NCBI GenBank assembly: GCA_903831815.1
Contig: CAIKZC010000001.1
Span: forward strand, 85,037 to 149,036
Origin: an uncultured bacterium
GTDB lineage: Bacteria > Patescibacteriota > Minisyncoccia > Phycocordibacterales > UBA11359
DNA length: 64,000 nt
Direction of reading: 5' to 3'
How positions within the stretch are numbered: position 1 is the stretch's first letter; each line of letters starts with the position of its first letter. The notes under the pieces are model-generated. The model saw only the letters and a program-made list of their open reading frames with translations, had not been told where the DNA came from and ran no database searches. The position numbers were made by a program, and so were the translations under genes. This document shows positions 2,574-42,557 of the stretch, piece by piece.

Positions 2574-2647
2574 CCACCCTTAGCTCAGTTGGTTAGAGCA
2601 TCGAGCTTATACCTCGAGGGTCCTAGGTTCGAGTCCTAGAGGGTGGA
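2574..2647 (+). tRNA. tRNA with anticodon TAT (reads AUA), putatively tRNA-Ile(UAU); no CCA encoded
   Basis: Manual cloverleaf fold. Acceptor CCACCCT/AGGGTGG has 7 perfect pairs. D arm GCTC-AGTTGGTTA-GAGC. Anticodon stem TCGAG/CTCGA with loop CTTATAC. V loop GGGTC. T arm CTAGG-TTCGAGT-CCTAG. Discriminator A. Confidence 0.7.
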
Positions 2648-2651
2648 CAAC

Positions 2652-2688: not shown

Positions 2689-4605
2689 TTATACCTGGCT
2701 CACAAAATCCACTTTCTTTTTTGGGGTAACACCATTGGCAACAAGAATGCTTTCGAATTCGGCACGTTCGATTGTTTCTTTTTCAATCAATCGTTTCGCG
2801 ATCGCATCGAGAAGTTGTCTGTGTTTTTCGATTACACCTTCAGCTTTTTTGTAAGCTTCTTTCATAATGAGCGAAACTTCGGCGTCAATTTCACCGGAAA
2901 CTTTTTCTGAATATTCGCCATCTTCAATACCGGCACCAAACATCGTTCGACCGCCGGCACTTTCAAGTGCAAGAGCACCCAACTTGTCGGACATACCGTA
3001 CTTTGTCACCATATCTCGAGCTAATCCAGTAGAAACTTGAAGATCGTTTGACGGACCAGTCGTCACATCATCAAAAATTATTTTTTCAGTCACGAAACCA
3101 GAAAGAGCGACAGCGATATCATCCAAAAATTCTTTTTTGCTCTGCATTTTGCGATCTTCGAGTGGCAAATGCAAAGTGTAACCGGCTGCGCGTCCTCGTG
3201 AAATGATCGAGACTTTGTGGACAGGATCGGCATACGGCAAAACTGAAGCGACGAGCGCGTGTCCGGCTTCATGGAAAGCAGTTAACTCTTTTTCTCGCAC
3301 GGAAAGCAAATGACTTTTTCTCTCCGGTCCCATCATCACTTTTTCGATGGAACGCACGAGGTCAAATTGCGCAACTTTCAAACGATTTTCGCGAGCGGCC
3401 AAAATCGCCGCTTCGTTCATAAGTGAATAGAGATCGGCGCCGGAAAATCCCGGGGTTCTTTCGGCAATGACCATCAAATTTACATCCTCGGCAAATGGTT
3501 TTTTGCGAGCATGAATTTCCAAAATAGCTTCACGGTCGTGGCGGTCAGGCAGATCGATTGTGACACGTCGGTCAAAACGGCCTGGGCGGAGTAAGGCAGG
3601 ATCGAGCACATCCGGTCGGTTAGTTGCGGCCATAACAATCACTTTTTCGTTCGGCTCAAATCCATCCATCTCAACGAGAATTTGGTTCAAAGTTTGTTCA
3701 CGCTCGTCGTTACCACCACCGACACCGGTGCCGCGCACGCGCCCCACGGCGTCGATCTCGTCCACGAAAATAATCGCGGGCGCGGCGGCTTTAGCCATTT
3801 TAAATAAATCACGCACACGGCTTGCTCCAACACCAACAAACATTTCCACAAATTCCGAACCGGAAATTGAGAAGAAAGAAACACCGGCCTCCCCCGCTAC
3901 CGCACGAGCCAGCAAGGTCTTGCCAGTACCCGGCGCGCCCATCAGTATAATTCCTTTCGGTATCCGCGCGCCTATATCCAAAAACTTTTTCGGATTTTTC
4001 AAAAAGTCCACAATTTCACTCAGCTCTTCCTTAGCTTCCTTCGCTCCGGCAATATCTTTGAAAGTGACTTGCTGTTTCTTGTCGTGAGGCAATGTGATGC
4101 GCGCTTTGGATTGACCAAAAGTAAATGCTTGCATGCCCGCACCTTTAACTTGTCGCGTAATGAACCAAATAAATATGGCAATAAAAACAATCGGAATAAT
4201 AAACGGCGCAAGGTTTATGAGCCAATACATAAAACCGCTTTGGGATTGGATATTGATTTGCACTCCGGCCAATTTATCTTTCGTGACGCCATAATTAACC
4301 AACGACTCAGTCAGAGCTGTGCCAACTTCTTTTTCAGCTTGTTTCTTATCACCGTTAGTATAAACAATATTTAAAGTGTCATCGGTAACGGTAATGCTTG
4401 TAACTTTGCCGGCCGTGACATCACTGGCCAATTGCGAGATCGGAATATTCGGAACTTGATTGGTACTGCCAACAATTGAAGAATAGATAATTATTAAAAT
4501 TATAAAAATAGACAAACTGGTAATAAGGTTACGCCAAAACGACGACTTATTATCTTTTCCCTTCTTTTTGTTGCCTTTATTTTTTTGTTGTGAATTTGGA
4601 TTCAT
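2689..4605 (-). CDS. ftsH: ATP-dependent zinc metalloprotease FtsH
   Basis: 638 aa. N-terminal TM segments, AAA+ Walker A GAPGTGKT, second region of homology, and HEAGHA zinc-binding motif. Confidence 0.9.
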
Positions 4606-4707: not shown

Positions 4708-5033
4708 GCCCCCGACAAACCATAGGTTTGTCGGGGGCGCTCTGTGTCACTGTCTCAACGGATCGGCCCAGTCACGAACGATACCGCCGTAACCAGACTC
4801 ATCTTGTTCATCTTCATCTGGCCCGGACAACACCCGGGCTTCATGCTGATGAGCTCGAGACTCGTCGGAGGCATCCATCACCTGATCGGACGGATTTTGA
4901 TTTTCCGGTCCCATAGTCATGACTCCATTCTTTGACAAGACCTCTGGCAGAGCTGCCGGGAACATCCCGTAAACAGCTGACTTATCTGGCTACTATTATA
5001 CACCCCCTTGGACTATTTGTCAAGCGTCAAAAA
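4708..5033 (-). ncRNA. Orphan transcription unit: consensus sigma70 promoter, about 260 nt of GC-rich RNA (contains a 72-aa acidic ORF 4747..4965 lacking an SD), and a terminator hairpin
   Basis: Minus-strand TTGACA (5023..5018), 17-nt spacer, TATAAT (5000..4995). Terminator GCCCCCGACAAACC-tat-GGTTTGTCGGGGGC at 4708-4738. The region is far more GC-rich than its surroundings. Confidence 0.4.
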
Positions 5034-5070
5034 ACTCTCAAAAAATCCCCTATTCTGCTATGATTATGCC

Positions 5071-5517
5071 ATGGCCATATTGTTGGAAAACAAAAAAGCC
5101 CATTTCAACTACGAGATTCTCGAGCGTTTTCAAGCTGGAATTGAAGTTGTGGGACATGAAGTGAAAGCTTTGCGCCATAATCTCGGCTCTCTTGAAGGGG
5201 CCTATATAACGATACGAGGCGGCGAGGCGTATATCATGAATATGTTAATTTCGCCATATCAGGTAAATAACACCGACCCTACCTACGAGCCCCGCCGCAA
5301 TCGCCGCCTCCTCCTCACCAAAAAAGAAATAAAAAAACTTGAAGAAACCGAGCACCAAGCAGGTTTGACAATAGTGCCTATTTCGGTGTATAATAATAAA
5401 CGGTGGATTAAGATGGAAATTGCGATTGTCCGAGGCAAGAAACAATTCGACAAACGCGAGGTCATCAAAAAGCGCGAAACAGATCGCGAAATCCGCCGCG
5501 AATTTAAAGATCGTTGA
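5071..5517 (+). CDS. smpB: SsrA-binding protein SmpB (start 5071 preferred; the longer ORF starts at 5008)
   Basis: MAILLENKKAHFNYEILERFQAGIEVVGHEVKALR... matches the SmpB N-terminus. It lies immediately upstream of the tmRNA. Confidence 0.85.
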   Translation: MAILLENKKAHFNYEILERFQAGIEVVGHEVKALRHNLGSLEGAYITIRGGEAYIMNMLISPYQVNNTDPTYEPRRNRRLLLTKKEIKKLEETEHQAGLTIVPISVYNNKRWIKMEIAIVRGKKQFDKREVIKKRETDREIRREFKDR

Positions 5518-5547
5518 AAATCGAAAAGTAGATAAGCATTTTAATAC

Positions 5548-5959
5548 GGGGATGATCGGCCTAGACAACTGATTCCCTTCTTGATGTGCGCTATAAGGGT
5601 CCTTGATACCTTCCAATCACCATGGAAATCTAAGTGCTAAAACCTTAGTTGCAAGCGCAAAGTCAACCTTATCTCCATATTTTGGAGCTAAAGACTTCGC
5701 GTTCGCCTACGTTTCTTAACCTAGGCGACGTCTCTCATCCTAATGTTTGGTCAGGATGAAGGGGTGTAATAAATCCAAACTGGAACTTGCGGTTTCTCGG
5801 CGCAAGTTTAAGAACAAGAGGATCGGCGGTGCATGATTTTGTTGGTTTAACCCATGCATTGCCTAAACGCCCACCTACCGGCGGGCACTAAAATCTTCTA
5901 CATAGCGTAGAAACATCAGAAGCATCTTTTGCACGGCGGTTCGATTCCGCCCATCTCCA
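5548..5959 (+). ncRNA. ssrA: Transfer-messenger RNA (tmRNA, ssrA)
   Basis: 5-prime GGGGATG pairs with 3-prime CATCTCC, including the G3-U alanine-identity pair. tRNA-like T arm GGCGG-TTCGATT-CCGCC, discriminator A, no CCA encoded. Length 412 nt, adjacent to smpB. Candidate tag frame ...AKDFAFAYVS ends at TAA 5717-5719 (tentative). Confidence 0.85.
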
Positions 5960-6139
5960 CAGACAAAATAAAAACTGCCCGCTAGGGTGGTTTTTATTTT
6001 GTCTGTAATTGATGATTGCCGGAATCGAAAGCCGGACCGAAGCTGCGATGTGAGCGAAGCGAACCGCAGCGAGGGAGGCGGGGTCGCGCAAAAATTGCGT
6101 AGCAATTTTATGTGTGACCGATGGAGCCTGCCTCCATCA
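5960..6139 (+). repeat. Element A copy 1: AT-rich 15-bp-stem hairpin (5960-6005) plus a 115-nt GC-rich conserved core (6021-6139)
   Basis: About 90% identical to 7345-7517. Several internal hairpins (GCTGCG...CGCAGC; CGCAA-aaa-TTGCG; GATGGAG-n5-CTCCATC). The core begins with GGAATCGAA, part of an inverted copy of the tmRNA T-loop/acceptor. Confidence 0.6.
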
Positions 6140-6214
6140 CTATAAAAGAAAGCGTCACAAAAGTACGCTTTCTTTCTTTTCGACTCATATACATAATTCG
6201 TATATAATAATCAT

Positions 6215-7204
6215 ATGAATATTGAATCAGCACCACAACCCGACAATCCCCAACAAGAAGAGAAAGTTGATCAAGAGAAGAAGTTCTATGAAGCATACCT
6301 AGACTATTTACAAAAATACAAAGCAGAAGCACTAGAAGCCCTCATTGAAATACATAAATATAATCCAAAATATATTTTTCTCACCGAAACCTCAAGCATA
6401 GGGTCTGGTTACGTGATGAAGTCTGGTCTAAAAGCTGCGTACCCAGATACCGAACAGCCAGAGTTTTACAGAGTTAACCCAAGGGATATATTAAAAGTAA
6501 TGTTAATCGGGCAAACCCGATTACTTGGGCAAAATATTGAAGGAATAAGAAAAATTCACCCAACACATATTCCTCGTATAAAGAAAGATGTTAATGATTA
6601 CTTGCGTAATGCTGGAGGATATGACGAGAAATTATTTGAATCAAAGCGACAGGAACTGGAAACATTTTTCAGAAGCAGAATTAAAGATACTTCGGCAAAA
6701 ATTCTTGTTTTCGACTCAGACTGGTCTACAGGGAAAAGTCCGGGAAGTATTGTTTCCCTATTAAAAAACCCTGAACATTACGGTTTTAGTGCTGATATAA
6801 AATGTGAAAACGTGAAAATGAACTTGCCCGAAGTGCCAACTGCACATTGGAATCGATTAAAAACAGCTGATCTTGTTTATGGCGGCAAAGTTCAGTTGGA
6901 TTTAAATCTGGGACCAGAAGATATAATCGGTATTCCGGCAGTTATAGCGCCGCTATCCGGCGTAAGTAATAATATTCCAATAACAGCAAAAAACAAAGAA
7001 TTTACAGGAGCTGGAACTAGAAACTTCAGGGCAAAAATTGCTAAGCTAACAACCGACAATATAAAACAAGTTCACTCTCCCGTTCGAGGGACAGTACCTC
7101 TAAATGCACCTCTAATCACTATTAACGCTCTGGAACAATTCGGCATAAAAATCGGAAATGAGATTAGACAAGATTTAGAAAAGGAACAACAAACAACCCC
7201 ATAA
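6215..7204 (+). CDS. Hypothetical protein (329 aa) flanked by the two copies of element A
   Basis: Long ORF with a TTCGAC-16-TATATAAT promoter-like sequence upstream. No recognisable motifs. Confidence 0.45.
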   Translation: MNIESAPQPDNPQQEEKVDQEKKFYEAYLDYLQKYKAEALEALIEIHKYNPKYIFLTETSSIGSGYVMKSGLKAAYPDTEQPEFYRVNPRDILKVMLIGQTRLLGQNIEGIRKIHPTHIPRIKKDVNDYLRNAGGYDEKLFESKRQELETFFRSRIKDTSAKILVFDSDWSTGKSPGSIVSLLKNPEHYGFSADIKCENVKMNLPEVPTAHWNRLKTADLVYGGKVQLDLNLGPEDIIGIPAVIAPLSGVSNNIPITAKNKEFTGAGTRNFRAKIAKLTTDNIKQVHSPVRGTVPLNAPLITINALEQFGIKIGNEIRQDLEKEQQTTP

Positions 7205-7344
7205 CAAGCTATTCAATTCCTTCTTGTGACTTCTATGATGAAATCTGCCTAAACAAAGTTTTTTAAACCCGAGCTCCACAATCGCCTCCGCCGCTTCAAA
7301 AACCCAAGAATGTAGTTGGTTCCAACTTTGATGCACTGTGTCCA

Positions 7345-7517
7345 CAGACAAATAAAAAACTGCCTCTTAGGTAGTTTTTTATTTGTCTGAAAAAGATGGG
7401 CGGAATCGAAAGCCGGACCGAAGCTGCGATGTGAGCGAAGCGAACCGCAGCGAGGGAGGCGGGGTCGCGCAAAAATTGCGTAGCAATTTTATGCGTGACC
7501 GATGGAGCCCATCTCCA
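7345..7517 (+). repeat. Element A copy 2 (hairpin 7345-7389; GC core 7402-7517)
   Basis: Direct repeat of 5960-6139. 7393-7409 (AGATGGGCGGAATCGAA) is a 17-nt exact reverse complement of the tmRNA 3-prime end (TTCGATTCCGCCCATCT). The copy ends GCCCATCTCCA. Confidence 0.6.
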
Positions 7518-7530
7518 TACAACGCATCCA

Positions 7531-7559
7531 TTGACTATTATACACACTTATGATACTAT
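7531..7559 (+). promoter_or_regulatory. Sigma70-like promoter of cassette gene 1 (TTGACT-17-TACTAT)
   Basis: Same architecture as the promoters at 7997, 8615, 9255 and 9770. Confidence 0.55.
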
Positions 7560-7611
7560 ATTGATGGTGCATTTTCAGAAACCATGTTCATTTATCATGT
7601 AGGAGTAAACC

Positions 7612-7884
7612 ATGAAAGATCTTTTTGCTGAACTGGGCAAGAGATTGCCCAGTGGCATTAATAGTCCCGGTGAATTGGATTTGGCTTTCAGTTGTCTCGC
7701 TTCTTTGCTTCCTGAAGGACCGCTCATGCTTTCGGATCCGGCAGTCTCTATTATATGCGATGCCTTCGAGAAGTTGGGGAAAGCAAAAGAACTTGACATG
7801 GCGGCCGTGACTCAATTGGCCACCAATATCTGCATCCTTTGGGATCTAAGTCTGAAAGCCAAGGCTCAACGGGGACAAAGGTAA
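7612..7884 (+). CDS. Hypothetical small protein (90 aa), cassette 1
   Basis: AGGAGT RBS 8 nt upstream of ATG. Its own promoter and terminator. GC higher than the genome background. Confidence 0.5.
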   Translation: MKDLFAELGKRLPSGINSPGELDLAFSCLASLLPEGPLMLSDPAVSIICDAFEKLGKAKELDMAAVTQLATNICILWDLSLKAKAQRGQR

Positions 7885-7901
7885 ACGCAAACCCGCAGGA
7901 G

Positions 7902-7990
7902 AAGCCGCAAGCTTCCCTGCGGCTTTCTCCTTTCCAAATCACTCAAAACCCTCCAAATTGCGCGGTTCTTAAATCGTTCACTCAACTCCA
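7902..7990 (+). terminator. Terminator hairpin AAGCCGCAagcttcccTGCGGCTT plus a conserved 60-nt downstream module (copy 1 of 2)
   Basis: Near-identical to 8510-8598. Followed by a T-rich tract. Confidence 0.6.
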
Positions 7991-8102
7991 CAACTATTGA
8001 CGAATATTTATAATTATGCTATGATTTACATAGCATTATTTGGTTAACATCGTGTTGATCAAATAAAAAACAGTAAGTTCTATCAAAAAAGGAATCAGAT
8101 CA

Positions 8103-8477
8103 ATGACACAAGTTTATCGAGGAATCGGAAACTCCATCAGTTACCGAGCCGGACTCATGAACGAACTCGCAATGAAGATGGCTGAGCAGGACATCAGAGA
8201 CAAAGAGCTTCGAGGAGAACTTCTCAAACTCGCACCAGCGTTTTTGCACAAATGGCTCTCCGAAGATCTCGTTCTGACAAGCCTGTTCAAGTTTGGCCGG
8301 TATGACACGAAAATAGTCTTCGGCGATATGTACAACTTCAAGAATGTCGCCGACACGAGACAGAAAATCAAAATGCTCGCCGAAGCTTGGGATGGAGTGG
8401 TTCTTATACAGCTCGGCATACCGGATGGCACACCAAAGCCTCACAGGATTCCTATATGCCTCTCGGCAATCATGTAG
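8103..8477 (+). CDS. Hypothetical small protein (124 aa), cassette 2
   Basis: Promoter TTGACG(7997-8002)-17-TATGAT. RBS AAGGAA. Terminator module copy 2 downstream. Confidence 0.5.
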   Translation: MTQVYRGIGNSISYRAGLMNELAMKMAEQDIRDKELRGELLKLAPAFLHKWLSEDLVLTSLFKFGRYDTKIVFGDMYNFKNVADTRQKIKMLAEAWDGVVLIQLGIPDGTPKPHRIPICLSAIM

Positions 8478-8509
8478 GTCCGAGAATTACACGGCAACTA
8501 AGCCGCAGA

Positions 8510-8598
8510 GAAGCCGCAAGCTTCCCTGCGGCTTTTTCTTTTCCAAATCATTCAAGATCCTCCAAATTGTGCGGTTCTTAAATCGATCACTCATCTCC
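8510..8598 (+). terminator. Terminator hairpin plus conserved module (copy 2)
   Basis: AAGCCGCAagcttcccTGCGGCTTTTTC followed by ccaaatcattcaagatcctccaaattgtgcggttcttaaatcg. Confidence 0.6.
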
Positions 8599-8723
8599 AC
8601 CACAAAAATAAAATTTGACGTATCTAATCTATTATTGTAATGTCTATTTTGGATGACGACGTGTGTCGTCACGGTTCCATTTTACGGGTCATAGAGAACC
8701 CCATCCCGAAAGGATAAAATCTC

Positions 8724-9122
8724 ATGTTTCAGAAAGTAAATTTCTTCGTTGATAGTGCGCTTAAGAGAAGAATGTCTGCCAACACGGAAGATGGCCGCTG
8801 TCTCATGACAGAACCCGGAATTTGGGAGATTATGAGACTCATCCCAACACTGTTGGAATTGGGTTATGCCTGGAAACCCTACAATGGTCCACACGATCTA
8901 GGGGTACTTGAAGACCACGATAGCAAAGGGTTTTGCGAGTTCTGCGAGTACGTTAGGAATGCTCGACGTGTTGAAGCAACGATCAGGATGAACGGAAGCG
9001 GGGTAACATATTTCACCGAAGTGAGACTAATCCCCGACAAAAGGTCATCCTCGCAACACGGGTTACTAGCTTTCAGAACCTACCTCGTCGACGGCGCCAC
9101 AGAACTTATGGCTCTCGCATAA
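8724..9122 (+). CDS. Hypothetical small protein (132 aa, Cys-containing), cassette 3
   Basis: Promoter TTGACG(8615-8620)-17-TAATGT. RBS GAAAGGATAA. Terminator AAGCCGCatggttcacccaGCGGCTT at 9162-9195. Confidence 0.5.
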   Translation: MFQKVNFFVDSALKRRMSANTEDGRCLMTEPGIWEIMRLIPTLLELGYAWKPYNGPHDLGVLEDHDSKGFCEFCEYVRNARRVEATIRMNGSGVTYFTEVRLIPDKRSSSQHGLLAFRTYLVDGATELMALA

Positions 9123-9340
9123 CAGCGCCCAACAGACTCTGGTCTACACAGAAGTCAGATGAAGCCGCATGGTTCACCCAGCGGCTTCTTTTTTTAACAA
9201 AAATCAACGTATCTCGCGGCTTTTCCATTGCTTCATTTTTCAAAAAATTAATATTTGACGTCAATGTTGTTATGTGATACTATATTTTTGGCTCAACAGT
9301 TCCAAAACAACACAAACTCAAACAGAAGAAAGGCAAAGTT

Positions 9341-9676
9341 ATGAATAAAATCATCACTTGGGACAAGGTTCTCACACGGAACTTTGTCGGCGGATATGTT
9401 GAACTTGTGAATAAAGGGGTCCGATATTTCGGACCTATCAGCTCGATAATCGCTCATGAAGAAGAGATCAAGGTGTCGGTTTTGTGGCTAGCTCAAAGCG
9501 ACAAAACCATTTGGCGCAAGGTCGTCGACAGTCAGGTAATCACTTTTACGCGTGCCAATCAACCACAAGATATCGGAAGGAATCAAGTACATATCCCGAT
9601 TTCGGTCAAGGCTCAATACACCTTTCACCCAAAAGGCGGCGTACGTTTTGCCTCTTTAAGGGTCGAGGGAGTGTGA
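9341..9676 (+). CDS. Hypothetical small protein (111 aa), cassette 4
   Basis: Promoter TTGACG(9255-9260)-17-TACTAT. RBS AGAAAGG. Terminator at 9709-9741 is identical to the cassette 3 terminator. Confidence 0.5.
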   Translation: MNKIITWDKVLTRNFVGGYVELVNKGVRYFGPISSIIAHEEEIKVSVLWLAQSDKTIWRKVVDSQVITFTRANQPQDIGRNQVHIPISVKAQYTFHPKGGVRFASLRVEGV

Positions 9677-9871
9677 CTTGGATTCAACCCTCTCATGAAG
9701 CACAAGTTAGCCGCATGGTTCACCCAGCGGCTTCTTTTTTTGCCCAAAACCACACCACGAAATCACCGCTTGACAATATAAGTAGTATCTGATAGGATAT
9801 AGGAACAAAGAAGGGTTCGTGTCGAGACACATATTTGTATAATAGTTAAGTAAATAAAATCAAAAAACAAA

Positions 9872-10069
9872 ATGAAGGGAACAATCAAGAAGTTAACTCC
9901 AAAAGGTTTTGGTTTCATCTCCTCAGAAGGCATGGCGAAAGATCTTTTCTTTCACTCAAAGGGCCTTGTAGGCGTACAATTCGATGAATTGCGCGAAGGT
10001 GACGCTGTAACTTTTGATACCGAAGAGTCTCCAAAGGGACCTAACGCTGTCAACGTACAACGAGCATAA
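9872..10069 (+). CDS. cspA: Cold-shock protein, CspA family
   Basis: 65 aa. KGFGFI RNP1 motif. Promoter TTGACA(9770-9775)-17-TAGGAT with an 80-nt 5-prime UTR. Terminator AACTGCCGAGAGATCGGCAGTTTTTTT at 10081-10108. Confidence 0.9.
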   Translation: MKGTIKKLTPKGFGFISSEGMAKDLFFHSKGLVGVQFDELREGDAVTFDTEESPKGPNAVNVQRA

Positions 10070-10126
10070 TCAAACAAAAAAACTGCCGAGAGATCGGCAG
10101 TTTTTTTGTTGCTCATTTTTCCTTTT

Positions 10127-11215
10127 TTAATAAGTAACGTTGAAATAGATCGTACCTGTCTGACCCTTGGAATTGGAAACATAGATCGGATAAGATCCCG
10201 GAGTCACAAGCTGCTCATATGCTGCACAAGCATATCCGCCCGTCGTGATGTCGCAAGGACCAACGGAGGATGGAATGGTAAATCGTATCGAATCACCATT
10301 GGAAGATGAAACGTTACTCTTTCCCCCATTACCGAAATGCACCGTGTTGTCATATCGAGTAAATCCTGAACCGTATAGTGTCACCTGTCGACCAACATGT
10401 CCAGAACTTGGAGAAATGGAATTTAATTCCGGTTGATTTTGATAATAATATCCATTGTCGTAGCAATTATTATAATTGTTGTAATTATAGCTGCCACCCA
10501 ATACGGAGAAAGAAATTGGATTACTCGTGCCGCGAGATGTCATAACAGAAACGGAATATGACCCGGAATAATTATTATAATTATTCAGTTGCGGAACCGC
10601 AAAAGCCATCGCCTGGCCTTGATACGAAGGAATTCCATCTAGAGTAATTCCATCAAAAATGATGGTGTTGTTATAAAGATCAAAACCGGAACCATAGATC
10701 GTTATGGACTGACCCACATAACCGGAATTTGTCGAAAGCGAAGTTATAACCGGCGCTCCATAATAATTATTGTAGTTATTGTATCCATAATTATAGCCGC
10801 CGTTGTATCCGGCATTTCCACATGAAATATTTTGTATAGATTGACGAGTCGATACTCCAACTATTCCATCGGAAGGAAGACCATGAGCAATCTGATATTG
10901 CTTCACAGCCTGCACAGTCAAAGCTCCATAATATCCGCTCGGCGCAGCAATCGGCAAATAATTTTGCGAGATCATATAGGCTTGAAGCATCGAAACTTCT
11001 CCACCCGTGTTAGAGTCAAAGAGTCCTTTATAAAGATTGTTATTTAGATTAAGACAAGACACTGCATAATTCGCAACCGATGGAGTTATTGGCGGAATAA
11101 GATTGCTGTATGTAGGAATATAATTGCTATACTGAGCAAAAACAGAGATCGGTGATACGAGACATACTGAAAATGCTAGTGCCACAACAGTCGAAAACAT
11201 GAATATTTTTTTCAT
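10127..11215 (-). CDS. Secreted protein with a peptidoglycan-binding-like domain and two IPT/TIG-like repeats; Tyr/Asn-rich
   Basis: Signal peptide MKKIFMFSTVVALAFSVCLVSPISVFA. ...LPSDGIVGVSTRQSIQ... Repeats ...SGYVGQSITIYGSGF and ...SGHVGRQVTLYGSGF. Confidence 0.6.
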   Translation of the reverse strand: MKKIFMFSTVVALAFSVCLVSPISVFAQYSNYIPTYSNLIPPITPSVANYAVSCLNLNNNLYKGLFDSNTGGEVSMLQAYMISQNYLPIAAPSGYYGALTVQAVKQYQIAHGLPSDGIVGVSTRQSIQNISCGNAGYNGGYNYGYNNYNNYYGAPVITSLSTNSGYVGQSITIYGSGFDLYNNTIIFDGITLDGIPSYQGQAMAFAVPQLNNYNNYSGSYSVSVMTSRGTSNPISFSVLGGSYNYNNYNNCYDNGYYYQNQPELNSISPSSGHVGRQVTLYGSGFTRYDNTVHFGNGGKSNVSSSNGDSIRFTIPSSVGPCDITTGGYACAAYEQLVTPGSYPIYVSNSKGQTGTIYFNVTY

Positions 11216-11314
11216 AATAGTATTTTATTAGTTATCAACGTCACTATAACACCGAGGGAGCCACTTTTCAATAACATTGCCACAATAAACAAATAGTGCT
11301 ATAATTTCCCATTA

Positions 11315-11833
11315 ATGAATACCAGAGCCAGAATAAACCATCAGATCAGGGCCGCAGAGTTGCGTGTGATTGATTCTAATGGTGCAAATTTGGGTGTCAT
11401 CACTCTTACTGAAGCTTTGGGTAAAGCGCAGGAGCAAGGACTTGACCTTATCGAGATCTCCCCTAGCGCCGTACCTCCAATCGCCAAGATTATGGACTTT
11501 GGAAAGTATCAATACGAAGCGAACAAAAAACTTAAACAAGCTAAATCCAAGGCTAAAGTCGTTGAAATAAAGAATATTCAGGTTAAAATCGGTACAGGCG
11601 ATCACGATCTGACTCTCAAAGCTAAAAAGGCGTCGGAATGGCTAACAGAAGGAAATCGCATCAAAATAGACCTATTTCTCCCAGGACGCGCTAAATACCT
11701 CGATTTTAAGTTTCTTAAGGAAAGACTGGATAGACTACTTAAACTCATTACCATCGATTATACTGTTGCTGATAGCCCTAAAAAGAGCCTGAAAGGCATT
11801 ACCACAATCATCGAAAAGGCTAAAAAGCAGTAA
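11315..11833 (+). CDS. infC: Translation initiation factor IF-3
   Basis: 172 aa. IRAAELRVIDSNGANLGVIT...DLIEISP...PIAKIMDFGKYQY. Promoter TTGCCA(11277)-17-TATAAT(11300) lies only 9 nt from the ATG (near-leaderless). Confidence 0.85.
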   Translation: MNTRARINHQIRAAELRVIDSNGANLGVITLTEALGKAQEQGLDLIEISPSAVPPIAKIMDFGKYQYEANKKLKQAKSKAKVVEIKNIQVKIGTGDHDLTLKAKKASEWLTEGNRIKIDLFLPGRAKYLDFKFLKERLDRLLKLITIDYTVADSPKKSLKGITTIIEKAKKQ

Positions 11834-11886
11834 GACTGGACAAAAAATCAAAAACAAGTAGTATATAAGACTCAACGTTTAATATC

Positions 11887-12105: not shown

Positions 12106-12450
12106 ATGGCACGAGTCAAAAAAGCTGTAAACGCATTAAAAGGACGACGAAATATCCTTAAACAAACCAAAGGATACCGTTTTGGTCGTAGCACCAAGAA
12201 AGCTCAAGCTATCGAAGCTCTTATGCACGCCGGAGCTTATGCTTTTGCTCACCGACGAGACAAGAAAGCCGACATGCGCGGTTTGTGGAATGTTAAAATT
12301 GGAACCGCCGCAAAAGCTAACGGTACTTCCTTCTCAGTTTTCATGGGTGCTCTCAAGAAAAATAAAATTGAATTAGATCGAAAGGTTCTCGCTGACATTG
12401 CGGAGAACAATCCGGAAACAATGAAGAGGATCCTCGCTGAAGTTAAATAA
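12106..12450 (+). CDS. rplT: 50S ribosomal protein L20
   Basis: MARVKKAVNALKGRRNILKQTKGYRFGRS...; terminator hairpin at 12466-12503. Confidence 0.9.
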   Translation: MARVKKAVNALKGRRNILKQTKGYRFGRSTKKAQAIEALMHAGAYAFAHRRDKKADMRGLWNVKIGTAAKANGTSFSVFMGALKKNKIELDRKVLADIAENNPETMKRILAEVK

Positions 12451-25361: not shown

Positions 25362-26222
25362 TCAGCCCGCCTTGAGGACATCGAGCATATCGAAGGCTTG
25401 ACCACGGATACCAAGCTCGATCTTCTTGGACAAGAACCTCAATGCTTTTAGCGCACCTGCAACATAAGGAGCGCGCCCATTGATGTTGTGGAACAAGCCA
25501 ACTCTCACACTTCCATCAGGCGCGCAGAGAGTATACTCGTGCCAACCGTGACCGCCAAGATATTCCGGCGGAACGCCCAGCAAATGTTGCTGTACGACTG
25601 GATCACGAATCATCCCGATATCTTCCACTGTGAACGGAGCTCCAAGACGAGCAAAAGAATCCATAAAGGAAATGGCTGTACCACTCGGATCTTTTTTGCC
25701 TTTCTGATGGCTTTCAACCACGGCCGCCTCGAAACCGGCAAAAACGCCGGGAAACATCTTGGCCGCCATCTGAAAAGTCGCGTGAAGTGCCACGACCTCG
25801 GCTGCCATATTAGGAGCAATGACAGCACAGGTCCGCGAACACTCAACTGCCCGTCGCAACTGAATTCGATCTCCTCCAGTCGTCCCCATGATGAATGGGA
25901 TCCAGTTTTCACAGAAGAACTCTACGTTGCCGTTGACCGCGTCTGGCTGGGAAAAATCGGCGACCACAACCGTACTTTTTTGTTCCGTCCGCATATAACT
26001 AATATCGGCTAGTGCAAGTTTCCGGTTTTCGGGGCGCACCAAGGAAATGCCAGACGCCGCGTCTTGATCTTCGGTTATCTCCGGACCAGTGAAGGCGAAA
26101 TTCGCCAATTCAAAATCATCCGGACACCGAAGAATCGCTTCGCGAAGCAAACGAGACATCTTGCCGGGAAAACCGCTGAGGATAACCACCGTCGGCTTCT
26201 TGGTCGTACTCGTACCACTCAT
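25362..26222 (-). CDS. dapB: 4-hydroxy-tetrahydrodipicolinate reductase (start at MSGTST preferred; the ORF extends to 26273)
   Basis: VVILSGFPGKMSR (NAD(P) binding); ESHQKGKKDPSGTA (DapB E-HH-K-D-PSGTA signature); GTTG. GC about 55%, against about 38% for the flanks. Confidence 0.8.
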   Translation of the reverse strand: MSGTSTTKKPTVVILSGFPGKMSRLLREAILRCPDDFELANFAFTGPEITEDQDAASGISLVRPENRKLALADISYMRTEQKSTVVVADFSQPDAVNGNVEFFCENWIPFIMGTTGGDRIQLRRAVECSRTCAVIAPNMAAEVVALHATFQMAAKMFPGVFAGFEAAVVESHQKGKKDPSGTAISFMDSFARLGAPFTVEDIGMIRDPVVQQHLLGVPPEYLGGHGWHEYTLCAPDGSVRVGLFHNINGRAPYVAGALKALRFLSKKIELGIRGQAFDMLDVLKAG

Positions 26223-26372
26223 ATCGCACCTCTTCCTGTAAAAGTTCTGTGAAAGGACATTGAAACTAAACAATTTCTAGCAGAGAAATGCGACGAAGTC
26301 AATACTCGTCGTTTTGTATAAAAAAAGAAAGGACCCTTGCGCTTCGCGCAAGGGTCCATGAAATCTCTGCTA

Positions 26373-27665
26373 TCAAGTCTGCAACATCTCATGGCTAGCT
26401 TCACGAAGCGTTCGCCACAAGTCTTCCGTCGTTTCGGCCCGACGGATCTGTTCGACCATACCATCCTCATGACGCAGAAGCTCCTGCGGAGCGGTGCGTC
26501 CATTGTAATTGGACCTCATCGCAATACTATGTGCTCCGGCTTCATGAACGACGATAATGTCACCAAGCTCGATGAATGGCAGAAGTCGCCGAGTGGCAAA
26601 CCGATCGGTGTTTTCACACGCTGGTCCAACAACATTCACTCGGTACAGCTGACCTCCCTTCACTCTTCCGGATGGATCCAAAACATCAATATGATGATAC
26701 GCACCATAAATGAATGGTCGTGGAATCGAAGCCATCGGACAGGCGTCGACGCCGATATGCGTCTCATAAGTATCCTTGCGATTGATGACCTTGGTCACCA
26801 AGGCGCCGTGAGGACCGGCCATGAATCGCCCGTTCTCCATAAATAAAGACGGGGCCCATCCATGAGCAGTATTGAAATCCATCAGAAGTCGTCTGGTTGC
26901 CGACGTCAATCTCTGGGTATCGAGCGGCTGCTGACTGGGTCTGTAATTCACTCCCCAACCACCACCGACGTTTATGTACCTGCAGCGCTTACCAGTAGCC
27001 TTCTCCAACACTTCGCAACGCTCAAGAAGCATCTTGGTTGTCGCGGCGTGGTATCGCCAGTTGCGCTGATTGGAGCAAATCATCGAGTGGATGCCGGAAG
27101 TTGTGGCACCCGCATTGAACGCTCTCTTGTATGCCGGAACGAATTGCTTGTCAGTCACACCATATTTGGCTTCCTGAGGTTTGCCAATAATGGAGGTACC
27201 TTTTCGTGCCCGACCGGGGTTGAAGCGGAAACAGATGTGGTCGGGGAAATTTTTCCCCATGGACTTACAAATACGCTTTACGGGTTCGACCATGGAAATA
27301 TCATCCAGATTCAGAATGACACCCATGTCGAGTGCTGTCTTAAATTCCTCGGTCGAGGTGTTGTTGGAAGTGAACATAACATCACAACCGGTTGCACCAA
27401 CGGAAGCTGCAAGCTGCAACTCGTGAACAGAACTGCAGTCAAAGCCGAAACCCATACTCCGCATTACTTTCATAATCGAATCGTTGGGCAAAGCCTTGAC
27501 AGCAAAGAATTCCTTGAAGTTAAAGCCCTCAAAGGCTGTATTCAGACAGAGACCGGTTGATTTGATTCCCGCCTCATCATAGATGAAAGCCGGTGAACCA
27601 AACTTGGCGATGATTGTCGGAACATGCGGATAAAGACGACGCTTGAATGACTGCGACAGTGGCAT
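26373..27665 (-). CDS. lysA: Fold-type III PLP-dependent decarboxylase, probable diaminopimelate decarboxylase (ORF extends to 27710)
   Basis: FAVKALPN (PLP-Lys region); ...GPACENTDRF... Flanked by GC-rich terminators (GGACCCTTGCGCttcgCGCAAGGGTCC at 26328-26356). Confidence 0.6.
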   Translation of the reverse strand: MPLSQSFKRRLYPHVPTIIAKFGSPAFIYDEAGIKSTGLCLNTAFEGFNFKEFFAVKALPNDSIMKVMRSMGFGFDCSSVHELQLAASVGATGCDVMFTSNNTSTEEFKTALDMGVILNLDDISMVEPVKRICKSMGKNFPDHICFRFNPGRARKGTSIIGKPQEAKYGVTDKQFVPAYKRAFNAGATTSGIHSMICSNQRNWRYHAATTKMLLERCEVLEKATGKRCRYINVGGGWGVNYRPSQQPLDTQRLTSATRRLLMDFNTAHGWAPSLFMENGRFMAGPHGALVTKVINRKDTYETHIGVDACPMASIPRPFIYGAYHHIDVLDPSGRVKGGQLYRVNVVGPACENTDRFATRRLLPFIELGDIIVVHEAGAHSIAMRSNYNGRTAPQELLRHEDGMVEQIRRAETTEDLWRTLREASHEMLQT

Positions 27666-27857
27666 GAATGCCTCCTTATGATTCTCTGAAAAAGACCTTT
27701 GACAGAACATCTGCCAATTTAATCTGTCCGAATACTACATTTTGAATTAAGGTGTGTCAATAAATAAAAATGCAAAGAAAAACCCGCCGTTTCCTCGGAG
27801 GAAACGGCGGGACTATTCATGAAAGAACCGATCACAAAACGAACGTAGGCCCAGCGA

Positions 27858-29072
27858 TTAGTACGCGACGCTGGCCTTATCGAACGCCTCAGCGATCCCG
27901 TTCGCGTTCGCGAGCACATCGTTAACGACGGCATAGCGAATATATGGATTGAACGGCACACCAAGCACACCAGTGTTCTCAAGCATAAGCCGATTGAAGT
28001 GCTCGGCATCTGTAATCACCTGGCCGAACGCCATCTTCGGCGTCTGCCAGAGAGTGAAGAAACCAGCCTGCGGGGTGACCGCGAGCTTCATTCCTCGCGG
28101 ACGCAAGATGCTGATCAAGGCACGGATGCGCTGATGATACAGCACCTGGGTCGCCTTGACCTCATCCATCCCATTTTCGAGTTGCTCGAGAATACCGATG
28201 GCGGCGAACGCGGCGAACCCGCTGTCTGCATCACCCTTGATGCGGGCGATGTCGTCAATGAAATCCGCGCTACCCACCATGGCACCAATTCGCCAACCAG
28301 TGAAGTTGCCGGCCTTGGAGGCCGAGAATGCTTCCGCCCAGGAAAGACCTGGGAATTGGCATGCGATTTGAGCAAGAGTCGGGTGACCAGATTCGTGAGT
28401 CACCAATGTGTAGGCCGCATCATTGACAAGCCTGATATCACGCTGTTGGCAATAACCGCACACGTGCCTGACCCAATCCTCATCCATCGCCCTCCCCGAA
28501 GGGTTGTGTGGAAAATTCATCATGACCAGACAGCGACCAACCTCCCGCTCCGTCGTGATTTGATCGAGCGTAAAAAGGAAACCGTTGTCTGGGCTCAACT
28601 TCAGAGCAACATGAGAAATATCGGAACCATACACCTCAGACCAATACGCCGGGGTAGGATAGCCGGGGTCGGTGCATGTGAACACTGTGAGATAAGGTGT
28701 GTCACGCGCCACCGCCCCACACGCGAGCGGAATGAGACCGAGCATCGGCTTGATGCCCGGAATCGGCAAATACCCCAAACCCTCAACATCGTCGAGGCAG
28801 TCGCCAACGTGGCAACGCACAAAACGCTTCGCGAAATCAGGAATCGGCAAACAGCCGTTGTCCTGGTATTCATGCATGTTCTGATCGCGCGACATCACCG
28901 CTTTCGCCGTGGCCTTGCAGGCCAGTTCGAGAGCCGGGCCACTTGGCTGACCGATCGAGAGATTGATGACCTTGACACCTTTCTCTTCGGCCGCTCTCCT
29001 TATGGCCTTGTTACGTTGAAACACGTTGCCCGGCGCAGCCGGCAACCACGATGTGAGAGTTGACTTCGCCAC
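27858..29072 (-). CDS. Class I/II aminotransferase, probable LL-diaminopimelate aminotransferase (DapL-like)
   Basis: PLP-Lys motif SASKAGNFTGWRIG; N-terminal NLSIGQP; adjacent to dapB and lysA. Terminator CCCGCCGTTTCCtcggAGGAAACGGCGGG at 27783-27812. Confidence 0.55.
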   Translation of the reverse strand: MAKSTLTSWLPAAPGNVFQRNKAIRRAAEEKGVKVINLSIGQPSGPALELACKATAKAVMSRDQNMHEYQDNGCLPIPDFAKRFVRCHVGDCLDDVEGLGYLPIPGIKPMLGLIPLACGAVARDTPYLTVFTCTDPGYPTPAYWSEVYGSDISHVALKLSPDNGFLFTLDQITTEREVGRCLVMMNFPHNPSGRAMDEDWVRHVCGYCQQRDIRLVNDAAYTLVTHESGHPTLAQIACQFPGLSWAEAFSASKAGNFTGWRIGAMVGSADFIDDIARIKGDADSGFAAFAAIGILEQLENGMDEVKATQVLYHQRIRALISILRPRGMKLAVTPQAGFFTLWQTPKMAFGQVITDAEHFNRLMLENTGVLGVPFNPYIRYAVVNDVLANANGIAEAFDKASVAY

Positions 29073-33008: not shown

Positions 33009-35552
33009 TTATAGAGGAGAAATTCCGAAGCCGGCGCCGAGGTAGTTGACGATATTTCGAGCTTCAAGTTCCGGGCGCCACGTAGCTTGCGATTGCAATC
33101 TCTCGGCGCCGATAAGTGAACTTAAAGTAGCTGATCCACCAATTGAAGCGCTGTAACTTTCGACGGTGCGAGAAACATCAGGGAAAGTAACCGCTTGTGA
33201 CACCGCACCAGTTTCTTTAGAAAGAGTCAGCCAATTGGTAAATGATTTTGGTGCATCCTGAATCATGAACCAATTTGATGCTGCGGCATTAGTGTAATAT
33301 GTGTTGTTGCTGAATGTTGCTCTAGCGGTTGACAATACTCCTTCAGAAGATACGGATGGAGATTGATAAAGCTTATCCTGGAATTTATTTCCAATAACTT
33401 GAATGTTTGTGAGTGGTCCGGCACTCAGCCCCACGAAACCTTGATTCCAATTGTAGAGAACGTTGTTTGAAATGGTGACATTCTGACTGGCCACAATACT
33501 TTCCAATCTGATACCGAAACTTGTTCCATTATTTGGTTTGTTTAGAAGCAAGTTGTTTGTAATGAGACCGCCATTGATACTTCCTAGATCAATTCCATAA
33601 CTTTGATCGGCTCCACCCAGCACTCTTCCTGTTTCAGTTAGCACATTATTCCGAATTGTGGCATCAATTGCACCATACTGAACCGAGGCTCCTTCTCCGG
33701 TTTTTGCGCCAACCGACATACTATTGCCGTTTGCGGCGAGAAGATTATTTTCGATCAGAACATGATTGGTTAGATTAGCGCCATTTTCGCTTCGCACCAA
33801 TATACCCTCACTTGAGGCATTAGAAATAATGTTATTTCTAATCGTGAGGTTCGTCATGTCATCCAGATACATATTGTGACTACGATCATCAGGCACTTGG
33901 AAACCGGTTTTCCAACCATTATGATCGATCACGTTAAATTCAATCAACATACCGTCAGCCGTTGAAGCAAAAATACCTTGCGATTTTGGTCCTCCAGCAT
34001 TGTAAGCATCAAGAATTCTGGAGCCGCGAATTGTGACGTGACTTGGACCTTTAGATGCATTTAGAGATGTGTCAGGTTCAGCTACAAAGTTATCAATAAA
34101 TCCTTCAATCGTACAATTTTCAACTAAGAAATTATTGCCCGAACCGTAAATGAAGATTCCTGTACCGTTTCCTTGACCTACGAGATGAAGTCCGACCATC
34201 GCAACGTTACTGGTGTTAAGTCCGTAAAAGTTTATGCCATTGTTATCCGCCGTTTCCGAAATAATCGGCTGTGCTCCGGTGCCGTAACTTGAAATTAACA
34301 TTTGCGCTGTAGCCAGTCCGGATTTTCGCCAACTGAAACTTTCATTTGTCCATGTGTCCCCTGCTTTGAGAAGCAACCAGTCCGGATAACCGTCACGAAT
34401 TAAAGAATATCCTTTGGCCAGTGTTTTTACCGGATGAGCTGAATCAAGGCCGGTATTGCTATCATTTCCTCCCGAACTACTGACATAGATTTTCTGAGTA
34501 TTGGCAGCGGCAGTGAAAGTTGTCCAGGTTACAGCGCCAGTTGAAGTTGGTGGCGGAACAACTGGTGGCGGAACAACCGGAGGAGCATACGTGCAAGATT
34601 GAGAGGTGACAGGTGTTCCTGTGCAACCAGCTGGAGCTGAAGTATATGTTCTGGTCTGTGTGTTATTTGACTGACAATCACTCCAAGCACCGTAAGTGTA
34701 TGTGCAAGCCTGTACCGGCGGAACATAAGTACAAGATTGTGACGTCACCGGAGTGCCCGTGCAACCCGTTGGAGTTGACGAAGCGACCGTACGAGTTTGA
34801 GTACTGTTTGATGCACAAGTTCCCCATGCACTGTAAGTATAAGTACAAGCTGAAGGAGGAGTAGTTGTCGAAGATTGATAATCAAAAACCACATCAACCC
34901 AATAATTTCGATTATTCCAAGTACTGGTCGGGAAAGTGTTTATATTGTAAACATAAACTCCGTTAGGTCCATTTTTTGTATTACTTGCCAGAGCGCGAAT
35001 AACTCCATTTTTATGAACAGTGCTGAAATAATTAGAATTTACGGCATAGAAACCGTTTGATGTAGAATACGAAGCGATATAAGGAGTATTGGCGGCAATT
35101 GCTATAGGCGTAGAGAAATTGGCGCTTTGCCATCCGGAAGCAGTTTCATTGATAAAAGTTACTGATCCAAGGAGAGCTCCTGTTGTTGTCCAAAGATGAC
35201 CGACGTGAGTGCCGGTATCACCCGGAATTTTATAAAATTGAATTTGTCTGATGTTTCCCGGGACATCGGTGCGAATTCTGACACCCAACTCAACCGGTTT
35301 ACCTGAACCAGTCTCGGAAGGTTTAACCGTATTGTCCCAAAGCTCAGCGGTACTTATCACAGGAGCAGGCGCGCTCTGTGTATTTGTGACCAAAGTCTCC
35401 GTTTGAGGAGTAACTCCATAGAACAAAGCGGCTGTCTGTTCTTGTAAGGCCGGAATTCCGGTATACAGTACATATGCAGCTATAGATATTACGAGCAAAA
35501 CGAAAACCCAGAGAAGAAGACGTTTCATATATTTATTTAAAAAAACGAGCAT
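33009..35552 (-). CDS. Large cell-surface protein: N-terminal TM anchor, two tandem Cys-rich 47-aa repeats, PPVVPPP linker, and right-handed parallel beta-helix (pectin-lyase-fold) repeats
   Basis: 847 aa. Repeated (I/V)xNN(L/V/I) beta-helix rungs (IRNNIISNA, IENNLLAANG, IRNNVLTETG, ITNNLLLNK, ISNNVLYNW). Two 141-nt tandem DNA repeats at about 34570-34850. Confidence 0.65.
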   Translation of the reverse strand: MLVFLNKYMKRLLLWVFVLLVISIAAYVLYTGIPALQEQTAALFYGVTPQTETLVTNTQSAPAPVISTAELWDNTVKPSETGSGKPVELGVRIRTDVPGNIRQIQFYKIPGDTGTHVGHLWTTTGALLGSVTFINETASGWQSANFSTPIAIAANTPYIASYSTSNGFYAVNSNYFSTVHKNGVIRALASNTKNGPNGVYVYNINTFPTSTWNNRNYWVDVVFDYQSSTTTPPSACTYTYSAWGTCASNSTQTRTVASSTPTGCTGTPVTSQSCTYVPPVQACTYTYGAWSDCQSNNTQTRTYTSAPAGCTGTPVTSQSCTYAPPVVPPPVVPPPTSTGAVTWTTFTAAANTQKIYVSSSGGNDSNTGLDSAHPVKTLAKGYSLIRDGYPDWLLLKAGDTWTNESFSWRKSGLATAQMLISSYGTGAQPIISETADNNGINFYGLNTSNVAMVGLHLVGQGNGTGIFIYGSGNNFLVENCTIEGFIDNFVAEPDTSLNASKGPSHVTIRGSRILDAYNAGGPKSQGIFASTADGMLIEFNVIDHNGWKTGFQVPDDRSHNMYLDDMTNLTIRNNIISNASSEGILVRSENGANLTNHVLIENNLLAANGNSMSVGAKTGEGASVQYGAIDATIRNNVLTETGRVLGGADQSYGIDLGSINGGLITNNLLLNKPNNGTSFGIRLESIVASQNVTISNNVLYNWNQGFVGLSAGPLTNIQVIGNKFQDKLYQSPSVSSEGVLSTARATFSNNTYYTNAAASNWFMIQDAPKSFTNWLTLSKETGAVSQAVTFPDVSRTVESYSASIGGSATLSSLIGAERLQSQATWRPELEARNIVNYLGAGFGISPL

Positions 35553-35700
35553 TAAACACTATTAATACTTTAATTGTATACTTGTCAAATATTTAGGCTA
35601 CGCAAGTTATCCACAGGGGGGATAAAATGTTTTATTTAAAAAAACTCCGCATAATCGTCTTTTGGACTTTTACACGGAGACCTTTCCTTCCAGCGAACGA

Positions 35701-36315: not shown

Positions 36316-36390
36316 ATGAAAAGACCTTAATTAGAACTCTTTCGAGAAATTATCACTAAATATCAAATTCGTCAAACGGAAACACAAAAC

Positions 36391-37038: not shown

Positions 37039-37085
37039 GCCAAAAGCCTAACAAATGGAGATAAAATATTAATAAAATCCAGCTA

Positions 37086-37384: not shown

Positions 37385-37405
37385 GGCCAAAAAACTAAAA
37401 ACTAC

Positions 37406-38029: not shown

Positions 38030-38034
38030 GGTTA

Positions 38035-38574: not shown

Positions 38575-38668
38575 AAAATTATTCTAATATTTTTGATTTA
38601 TCACCAACTGTAATTGTACCAAAAAGAAAGGCCGGCGGAAAACTAATCTTTACTTTTTTAATATTATA

Positions 38669-42405: not shown

Positions 42406-42557
42406 CCCTTACATTATAACTTTTATAAGTTTTTCTGGGAAGGGCTATTTTCAATATTAACTAATGATAAGGTCTTTTGGAAAAATATTTTTTAATCAAC
42501 ATGGCTAAAGAAATATTTATACAATCAACAACATTTTTTATTTTCTTTGTAAATTCA

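Follow-up and report, generated by a model that had tools for sequence, protein, structure and literature searches.

One-gene cassettes stacked beside the tmRNA gene of an uncultured Paceibacteria bacterium look like mobile cargo, not a cold-shock regulon

Introduction

Two described systems come closest to the locus analysed here. In T4-type phages, promoter/stem-loop (PeSL) elements act as mobile regulatory cassettes that join a sigma-70 promoter to a stem-loop terminator (Arbiol et al. 2010, PMC2839356; Comeau et al. 2014, PMC4122927), and a gene lying between two copies of the motif can loop out as a mini-circle (PMC2839356; PMC4122927). In Dehalococcoides, tandem islands at ssrA, the gene for transfer-messenger RNA (tmRNA), are associated with the serine integrase DsiB, and units without an integration module have been read as accreted cis-mobilizable elements (McMurdie et al. 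2011, PMC3146451). Here we set beside them a row of small genes downstream of ssrA in a 64,000-nucleotide (nt) stretch of DNA, hereafter the window, from an uncultured Paceibacteria bacterium (Patescibacteria, or candidate phyla radiation, CPR). A first description, made from the letters alone (the sequence-only reading), had divided positions 7531-10110 into five single-gene cassettes with recycled regulatory modules and had proposed either a stress or cold-shock regulon or a moron-like accessory array. In our analysis, the region looks like stacked mobile cargo, not a cold-shock regulon: with moderate confidence, we read the array as one-gene accessory cassettes that accreted at a hotspot between ssrA and csp and were reshuffled by recombination at shared junction modules.

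Comparison with described systems

The likeness to PeSL regions lies in a promoter and stem-loop motif that is repeated in a hyperplastic region beside small orphan genes, giving autonomous, insulated units, and in indels between close relatives that break at the motifs; here the breakpoints fall at the -35 box of csp, a cold-shock-domain gene, and at the end of a structured 124-nt element. Unlike PeSL, the window array lies not in a T4-type phage genome but in a bacterial (CPR) chromosome, anchored at ssrA; it conserves mainly the terminator and its tail rather than the promoter, in two plus two copies only; and of mini-circle exchange it displays only the repeat footprint. Serine recombinases in relatives of the window suggest, as a further difference, that site-specific as well as homologous recombination takes part.

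With the ssrA islands of Dehalococcoides the locus shares variable DNA directly after the single-copy tmRNA gene, tandem units, apparently displaced ssrA 3' ends at some of the borders and, in relatives of the window such as L026 (L numbers denote loci outside the window), a serine recombinase of ~540 residues (aa) encoded on the reverse strand over the ssrA 3' end. It differs in that its units hold one gene and measure 0.55-1.4 kb, against ~10-30 kb; in that no integration module was found in the window by tblastn or by Pfam on 37 ORFs, although at least eight relatives have a recombinase gene beside ssrA; and in that its ssrA repeats are short or degenerate save around the 124-nt element, with terminator and promoter modules at the junctions. 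The array belongs strictly to neither class, for it has no phage context, no integrase was found in the window and the ssrA repeats are degenerate at some borders.

The variable slot between ssrA and csp

Comparison with relatives indicates that the four small genes take up the distal portion of a hypervariable slot (~5960-9768), which extends from the tmRNA gene to the conserved csp gene and is occupied at present by the open reading frames (ORFs) ORF329, ORF90, ORF124, ORF132 and ORF111. The left anchor is the 3' end of ssrA (5548..5962, + strand; Rfam RF00023, 79.4 bits, full length), downstream of smpB (5008-5517), and the genes flanking the slot are recG, ftsH, smpB, ssrA, infC, rpmI and rplT. 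Close relatives, those whose Csp is at least 90% identical, retain the order smpB-ssrA...csp-(peptidoglycan-binding gene)-infC-rpmI-rplT, and the genes from ssrA to csp are wholly different in each, so the whole segment varies between strains, in support of the accessory array that the sequence-only reading had suggested. DNA homology with these relatives stops past the first 124-nt element (~6122), the end of which is the left breakpoint, and restarts at the right breakpoint, 9769, one base before the -35 hexamer of csp; an alignment to L093-L095 at 88% DNA identity begins exactly at this base. A comparison with 80 smpB loci from related genomes found none of the cassette ORFs there. Among the more distant relatives, the distance from ssrA to infC is 0.9-1.7 kb (e.g. 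L030, L038) or ~5-40 nt (L064, L056). Synteny is interrupted directly downstream of ssrA, as it is in ssrA islands.

The identical arrangement is found in at least 10 independent assemblies and is therefore not an assembly artefact. One metagenome scaffold, L001, is 99.96% identical to window 7105-11843 and has unrelated ends (L001:1-190, 190 nt, and 4929-5918, 990 nt), with an HD-domain gene where the window has rpmI-rplT; it is probably chimeric, a strain rearrangement being the less likely alternative, and we do not take it as evidence of mobility. The SmpB of the window shares 76% identity with its counterpart in a Candidatus Taylorbacteria genome; its other best matches come from Paceibacterota and Parcubacteria genomes.

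The right edge of the slot bears directly on the cold-shock proposal. The csp unit (9769..10110, + strand) comprises a promoter (9770-9798), a conserved leader of ~67 nt, the gene itself (9872-10069) and a bidirectional terminator, T5 (10073-10110). Because homology with the relatives restarts at its -35 box and the slot genes differ, csp with its promoter and leader is a core gene that marks the edge and not a member of the array. Its product of 65 aa has a cold-shock domain (CSD; PF00313, E 6.8e-19) and scores below the equivalog cut-offs of the NCBIfam CspE and CspC models, so we regard it as a generic CSD protein and not specifically as CspA. A co-regulated stress or cold-shock regulon, in which promoters and leaders of the cspA type would couple the expression of the four small proteins to that of CspA, is very unlikely. 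The five units do have the same orientation and strong promoters, and csp closes the row; but csp, its promoter and its leader are kept in relatives that lack all four ORFs, the other leaders share nothing with the csp leader, and the match to the Rfam cspA thermoregulator (RF01766) reaches 26.6 bits against a gathering score of 78 and lies mostly over the coding region. No operator-like motif common to the units was seen beyond the -35 and -10 boxes, the other promoters sharing generic sigma-70 features only. With csp a core gene and the Rfam match below threshold, the cold-shock regulon loses its basis.

Anatomy of the cassettes

All four remaining cassettes lie on the + strand. Cassette 1 (7531..7994) consists of promoter P1 (7531-7559), a leader, ORF90 (7612-7884, 90 aa) and the T1 hairpin with its tail (7899-7994); cassette 2 (7997..8603) of P2 (7997-8025), ORF124 (8103-8477, 124 aa) and T2 (8508-8603), with the T1/T2 direct repeat bracketing the gene; cassette 3 (8615..9206) of P3 (8615-8643), a conserved leader hairpin (8686-8701), ORF132 (8724-9122, 132 aa) and T3 (9163-9206); and cassette 4 (9255..9752) of P4 (9255-9283), ORF111 (9341-9676, 111 aa) and T4 (9709-9752), with the T3/T4 direct repeat bracketing the gene. 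Sites of the form TTGAC(T/G/A)-N17-TAnnnT stand at 7531, 7997, 8615, 9255 and 9770, and a stringent extended -10 pattern, TTGAC-N15-TGnTAnnnT, occurs seven times in the 64 kb against 0.17 expected, four of the seven within 7531-9798. A Shine-Dalgarno-like AGGAG, AAGGA or GAAAGG precedes the ATG of all four small ORFs. T1-T4 are stable hairpins followed by T-rich runs (fold z -1.9 to -3.7), and all four have the arms AGCCGC...GCGGCT in common. Elsewhere the window is packed tightly in operons, which makes spacers of 195-246 nt with a hairpin and a promoter in each an unusual feature of this genome.

The sequence-only reading was right that each of five + strand genes, csp included, has its own promoter and leader and ends in a hairpin followed by a T-run, and that the encoded proteins are mutually dissimilar (phmmer --max, all pair scores <= 1.7 bits for the four small ones). 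Other details needed amending. The leaders, given as 70-110 nt, measure ~46-74 nt when counted from the -10 box. A simple terminator scan picked out T5 only, so that the intrinsic terminators claimed are, at T1-T4, putative ones, recognised as a hairpin plus a T-rich run. The GC content of the array is above background by a small margin only (0.438 against 0.421 for the window), with the ORFs, at 0.46-0.48, inside the range of the other genes (0.29-0.56).

Repeated junction modules

The reshuffling component of our reading is carried by the repeats between the genes. The T1/T2 repeat extends over 96 nt at 91% identity (7899-7994 / 8508-8603) and the T3/T4 repeat over 44 nt at 91% (9163 / 9709), of which 33 nt are identical. 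Either repeat is found in exactly two copies in the window against 0 expected, far above chance, so the recycling of modules is real. When the four intergenic regions are aligned jointly, their homology extends from the hairpin through the -35 box. Direct repeats bracket alternate genes: a 185-nt block of terminator and 124-nt element surrounds ORF329, T1/T2 surrounds ORF124 and T3/T4 surrounds ORF111. Alternate bracketing is the footprint expected from either of two routes. By the first, a circular one-gene cassette with one copy of a module would recombine into a resident copy of the same module; by the second, units would integrate serially at the ssrA 3' end, the older junction being displaced outward each time.

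An array of unidirectional small orphan genes, with similar, imperfectly palindromic and conserved repeats of ~45-100 nt between them, also resembles an integron array, and the modules could be taken for an attC cluster without its integrase. We give this explanation almost no credence: none of the four intergenic regions has the R''(RYYYAAC)/R'(GTTRRRY) pair of an attC core 45-135 nt apart, and no integron integrase (IntI) was found nearby. Integron genes, moreover, do not typically carry promoters of their own, as every gene here does, and the row is anchored at ssrA, not at attI.

The ORF329 unit and a pseudo-ssrA end

The array begins before 7531, with a sixth unit, ORF329, and a duplicated 185-nt block between ssrA and that position; the five-gene array first described thus keeps its four small genes, loses csp to the core genome and gains an earlier unit. 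The first block, R1 (5952..6137, + strand; found by repeat search, fold z -5.0), comprises the last nucleotides of ssrA, a terminator hairpin (5959-6006) and copy 1 of the 124-nt element (6014-6137), and blocks of this type are conserved after ssrA in relatives. The ORF329 unit follows (6180..7204, + strand), with a promoter TCGACT-N17-TATAAT at 6180-6208 and ORF329 at 6215-7204; its product of 329 aa has no match in Pfam, PHROGs, PADLOC or NCBIfam, forms a singleton cluster and is absent from the relatives. Beyond it lies a junction motif of ~65 nt that ends in TGTGTCCACAGA (7268..7348, + strand), a pseudo-ssrA 3' end and attR-like junction, and then the second block, R1' (7337..7518, + strand; fold z -5.9), with the pseudo-ssrA end, a terminator hairpin (7345-7389) and copy 2 of the element (7395-7518).

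The two element copies are 95% identical to each other. Over 17 nt, the 5' arm of copy 2 (7394-7410) complements the true ssrA 3' end perfectly, and at its 3' end copy 2 resembles ssrA more closely than copy 1 does; on account of this closer match, copy 2 is probably the original, displaced outward. An ssrA-end direct repeat, TCCACAGACAAA, stands at 5955 and 7340, and further ssrA-end copies terminate both 124-nt elements. An ORF329 unit equipped with its own terminator and element may have entered at TCCACAGACAAA (5955/7340) and pushed the older copy 2 outward.

The junction motif has nhmmer matches in L006, L012, L018 (two copies), L024 and L091 (E 1e-12 to 1e-23), and the 12-mer TGTGTCCACAGA (window 7337-7348) is identical at the right junction of a recombinase-bearing island in L026. 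Its non-coding portion, a motif of 52-65 nt of the form ACAATCGCyTCmG...TCAAAAACCCAAGrATrTAGTTGGTTCCAAC (window 7268-7331; L018:11705-11756 and 12372-12423; L006:3491-3542; L012:11404-11469; L024:11935-12006; L091:2289-2354), is 85-94% identical where proteins are only ~60% identical, and every copy sits 0.4-1.4 kb past ssrA, at a cassette border; it may be a recombinase-binding arm or an element end.

A 34-nt stretch in the T2 tail resembles the ssrA segment from T-loop to trailer (Smith-Waterman z 5.6, 0/500 shuffles); no trace of the ssrA 3' end is detectable in T3 or T4 by alignment or profile search, and nhmmer profiles of the junction motif or of ssrA 3' ends found no match inside 7500-10200. 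A match by eye between this motif and the T1/T2 tails was dropped, as shuffling tests gave it no support (z <= 2.9).

The 124-nt element family

The element in R1 and R1' belongs to a family of structured sequences of ~90-150 nt in Paceibacteria, of which the window copies, which are GC-rich, measure 124 nt. There are 23 nhmmer matches, or 22 without the L092 copy that duplicates L091, among them L023:7445-7528 and 3447-3530, L039:7703-7787(-), L030:7416-7517(-), L036:7227-7314(-), L016:12615-12701, L040:8233-8346, L046:10955-11067 and copies in L007, L028 and L017. Seventeen or 18 of the matches lie ~45-80 nt after a gene for tRNA-Ile (Ile-UAU), tRNA-Ser, tRNA-Arg or tmRNA; the exceptions are L044, ~400 nt after tRNA-Ile, and L037, L026 and window copy 2, which stand behind no intact RNA gene. 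The layout runs from the 3' end of the gene (A) through a terminator hairpin, an inverted A' and the core GAGnCGGGGTCGCG-hairpin-CGTGAC to a direct copy of A, and the A and A' segments match the local upstream gene and co-vary with it. Compensatory changes affect 11 of the 13 pairs of the core hairpin, and one G-U pair never varies, a pattern that points to an RNA on the gene strand. The element is undescribed and has no Rfam family match; it could be a 3'-trailer RNA switch, a processing signal or a decoy attachment site. A tRNA-Ile gene with anticodon UAU (window 2574-2648) is conserved near smpB/ssrA across these genomes and is followed by a 124-nt-type element in several relatives, though not in the window.

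Cassettes and recombinases in relatives

The same design recurs in other Paceibacteria, with unrelated genes. L018 has two cassettes after ssrA, with a 52-nt motif repeated at 100% identity and then a GIY-YIG gene; L024 has two cassettes with an 89%-identical terminator, one putative product looking receiver-domain-like by eye; L046 has five cassettes with repeated spacers; and L093 has one. Across 38 loci of relatives, the 4 kb downstream of ssrA are ~7-fold enriched, on the strand of this gene, in the stringent promoter pattern, and spaced short direct repeats occur downstream of ssrA in 8/38 loci against 2/38 control segments. Stand-alone GIY-YIG nuclease genes (84-87 aa) are seen at cassette positions in L018:12640-12903 and L086:140-394, each preceded by a GC-rich structured stretch.

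Recombinase genes in these relatives connect the design with integration. L026 encodes a large serine recombinase of 544 aa (L026:11231-12865, - strand; Resolvase, Recombinase and Zn_ribbon_recom domains), the gene for which overlaps the ssrA 3' end and is followed by an 8.3-kb island of orphan genes; at the far end of the island (L026:19590-19810) stand a displaced pseudo-ssrA end, TGTGTCCACAGA, then a terminator and a 124-nt-type element. Homologous recombinase genes adjoin ssrA in seven more relatives (L036, L037, L029, L039, L023, L009 and L013). The right-end 95 nt of the L026 island are 80% identical to the inter-cassette module of L046 (z 27; second copy z 7.9), which ties cassette junctions to recombinase-borne elements. 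Judged from these sequences, ssrA is an integration hotspot in this clade, and its link with the cassettes is more than positional.

Cassette proteins and their relatives

The proteins themselves are mostly orphans. ORF124 and ORF111 match only themselves among 5.8e9 clusters in a word-indexed search, and the cassette ORFs have no match in Pfam, PHROGs, NCBIfam, PADLOC, IMG/VR or 50,697 GenBank phages. These nulls bear on the proposal that the row is the remnant of a prophage or phage satellite at ssrA, its small genes being morons or early genes in phage-type cassettes. In its favour, ssrA is a classic phage attachment site, the layout is like that of PeSL regions of T4-type phages (PMC2839356), and the codon usage and third-position GC (GC3) of the small ORFs are somewhat atypical. 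A phage moron is likewise a single accessory gene set between others with its own promoter and terminator. Yet the array has neither prophage context nor viral homologs and the slot holds no structural, replication or integrase genes, so that we regard a phage remnant, and with it the moron-like origin first suggested, as quite unlikely.

A different doubt concerns translation: some of the units might be small-RNA genes or transcriptional insulators. The lack of homologs for ORF90, ORF124 and ORF111 would fit this, as would codon scores that lie under the genome mean, with ORF132 at ~0; low scores are also what acquired genes are expected to show. Against untranslated units, all four small ORFs score best for codon use in the annotated one of the six frames, with higher GC at first than at second codon positions (GC1 > GC2), each has its Shine-Dalgarno-like site, and the ORF132 protein is conserved and has a confident predicted fold. 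We consider this alternative highly improbable.

ORF132 is the small ORF for which conservation in relatives could be established. Four relatives, 40-45% identical to it, emerged from an exhaustive HMMER search, and the family is a conserved alpha+beta one; their loci have the same promoter/leader/ORF/terminator layout. A scan of metagenomes gave no ORF132 relatives, and the single-sequence model of ORF111 is poor (predicted local distance difference test, pLDDT, 53). The leader hairpin GGGTCATAGAGAACCC, of 4 bp and ~22 nt upstream of the start codon, is conserved in the family (window 8686-8701; L086:612-627; L087; L088), and in L088 two of its pairs are changed on both sides with pairing preserved; it may be a regulatory or stability element of the leader. 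The surroundings of these relatives recall the window: in L087 the ORF132-family cassette begins 2 nt past a tRNA-Met gene, the L086 contig opens with a tmRNA-like 3' end followed by the GIY-YIG gene, and the L088 terminator is homologous to T1/T2 (z 12), so that a terminator of this type also stands behind a homolog of ORF132 in another organism.

Weighing accretion against local evolution

Several observations weigh against accretion by recombination. The T1-T4 modules do not significantly resemble either the conserved junction motif or the attR-type modules of L026 and L046, and at the borders of the L086 cassette the pseudo-ssrA copies score weakly (z 1.5-2.7). Across the whole metagenome collection, the T1/T2 hairpin pattern is rare; it is found at 60 loci as a generic terminator of unrelated organisms, and none of these loci has ssrA, the 124-nt element or homologous proteins, so that the hairpin by itself is not diagnostic. 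For three of the four small ORFs no relative is known, and their coding status accordingly rests on Shine-Dalgarno sites, frame-specific codon scores and layout. No recombinase was found in the window by tblastn with the L026 recombinase or by Pfam on 37 ORFs (the cassette ORFs, those flanking the slot and 20/24 of the ORFs of ~200-615 aa beyond 20 kb). Finally, the population contigs are all identical, with no single-nucleotide polymorphisms, and no insertion or deletion polymorphism of single cassettes was seen.

Part of this evidence would suit purely local evolution, in which a terminator-promoter segment was duplicated in place several times and the ORFs between the copies, new or fast-evolving and specific to the lineage, never moved. 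The alignment of the four intergenic regions from hairpin to -35 box, the absence of relatives for three of the ORFs in the searches made, and a window in which no recombinase was found, in a population without polymorphism, are all in keeping with it. But tandem duplication should copy genes too, and the ORFs are unrelated; homologs of ORF132, 40-45% identical, are known from other loci, where the leader hairpin is kept, a T1/T2-type terminator recurs and tRNA or tmRNA-like ends lie alongside; and slot content is wholly different among close relatives. We therefore judge local evolution improbable and keep to accretion and reshuffling of cassettes. The modular shuffling of regulatory parts around unrelated ORFs, which the sequence-only reading had suggested, agrees with the homologous junctions, the strain-variable segment and the T1/T2-type terminator behind an ORF132 homolog elsewhere.

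Other features of the window

Three further features lie far from the slot. A reverse transcriptase of 369 aa (52176-53285, + strand; PF00078, E 2e-25) is preceded by a 120-aa ORF (51686-52048) and a 393-nt gap, and is perhaps part of a diversity-generating retroelement, a retron or a group II intron. The ribosomal-protein cluster is apparently interrupted by ~11 kb (~33009-43780) between the S3/L22/S19 genes and L2 (44012-44863); the insert holds ORFs of 847 and 841 aa, an ORF6N/KilA-N-type protein (36391-37038), a Peptidase_S51 protein and several unknowns. A block of dapB, diaminopimelate-decarboxylase-like and aminotransferase genes (25362-29072) lies within the spc-type cluster.

Proposed mechanism and implications

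In the model that we favour, each cassette is an insulated transcription unit made of an extended -10 sigma-70 promoter, a leader of 46-74 nt, a Shine-Dalgarno site, a small orphan ORF and a hairpin terminator of a shared family. The window cassettes would have arrived by one or other of the two routes, with a recombinase that acted in trans or has since been lost, and their repeats may still permit excision and exchange. The cargo proteins would serve dispensable, strain-specific functions and not a co-regulated stress response.

A bolder version, which we hold to be a tentative possibility, is that Paceibacteria run a dedicated gene-capture platform at the tmRNA gene, a functional analogue of the integron. 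Large serine recombinases supplied in trans would insert one-gene minicircles, each with promoter, leader, ORF and terminator, at the ssrA 3' end or, alternatively, at the decoy ssrA-end copy on the structured 124-nt element that trails tRNA and tmRNA genes. If true, such a platform would give otherwise minimal genomes arrays of strain-specific orphan genes.

The genomes of CPR/Patescibacteria are tiny and for the most part syntenic, and the ways in which they gain genes specific to a strain are poorly understood. A concrete route is suggested by this locus and its relatives, in which one chromosomal slot beside ssrA gathers insulated one-gene units, and its junction sequences and clade-specific serine recombinases are directly testable. 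The slot would also hold a pool of small, probably highly expressed orphan proteins, which are candidates for host-interaction or conflict functions.

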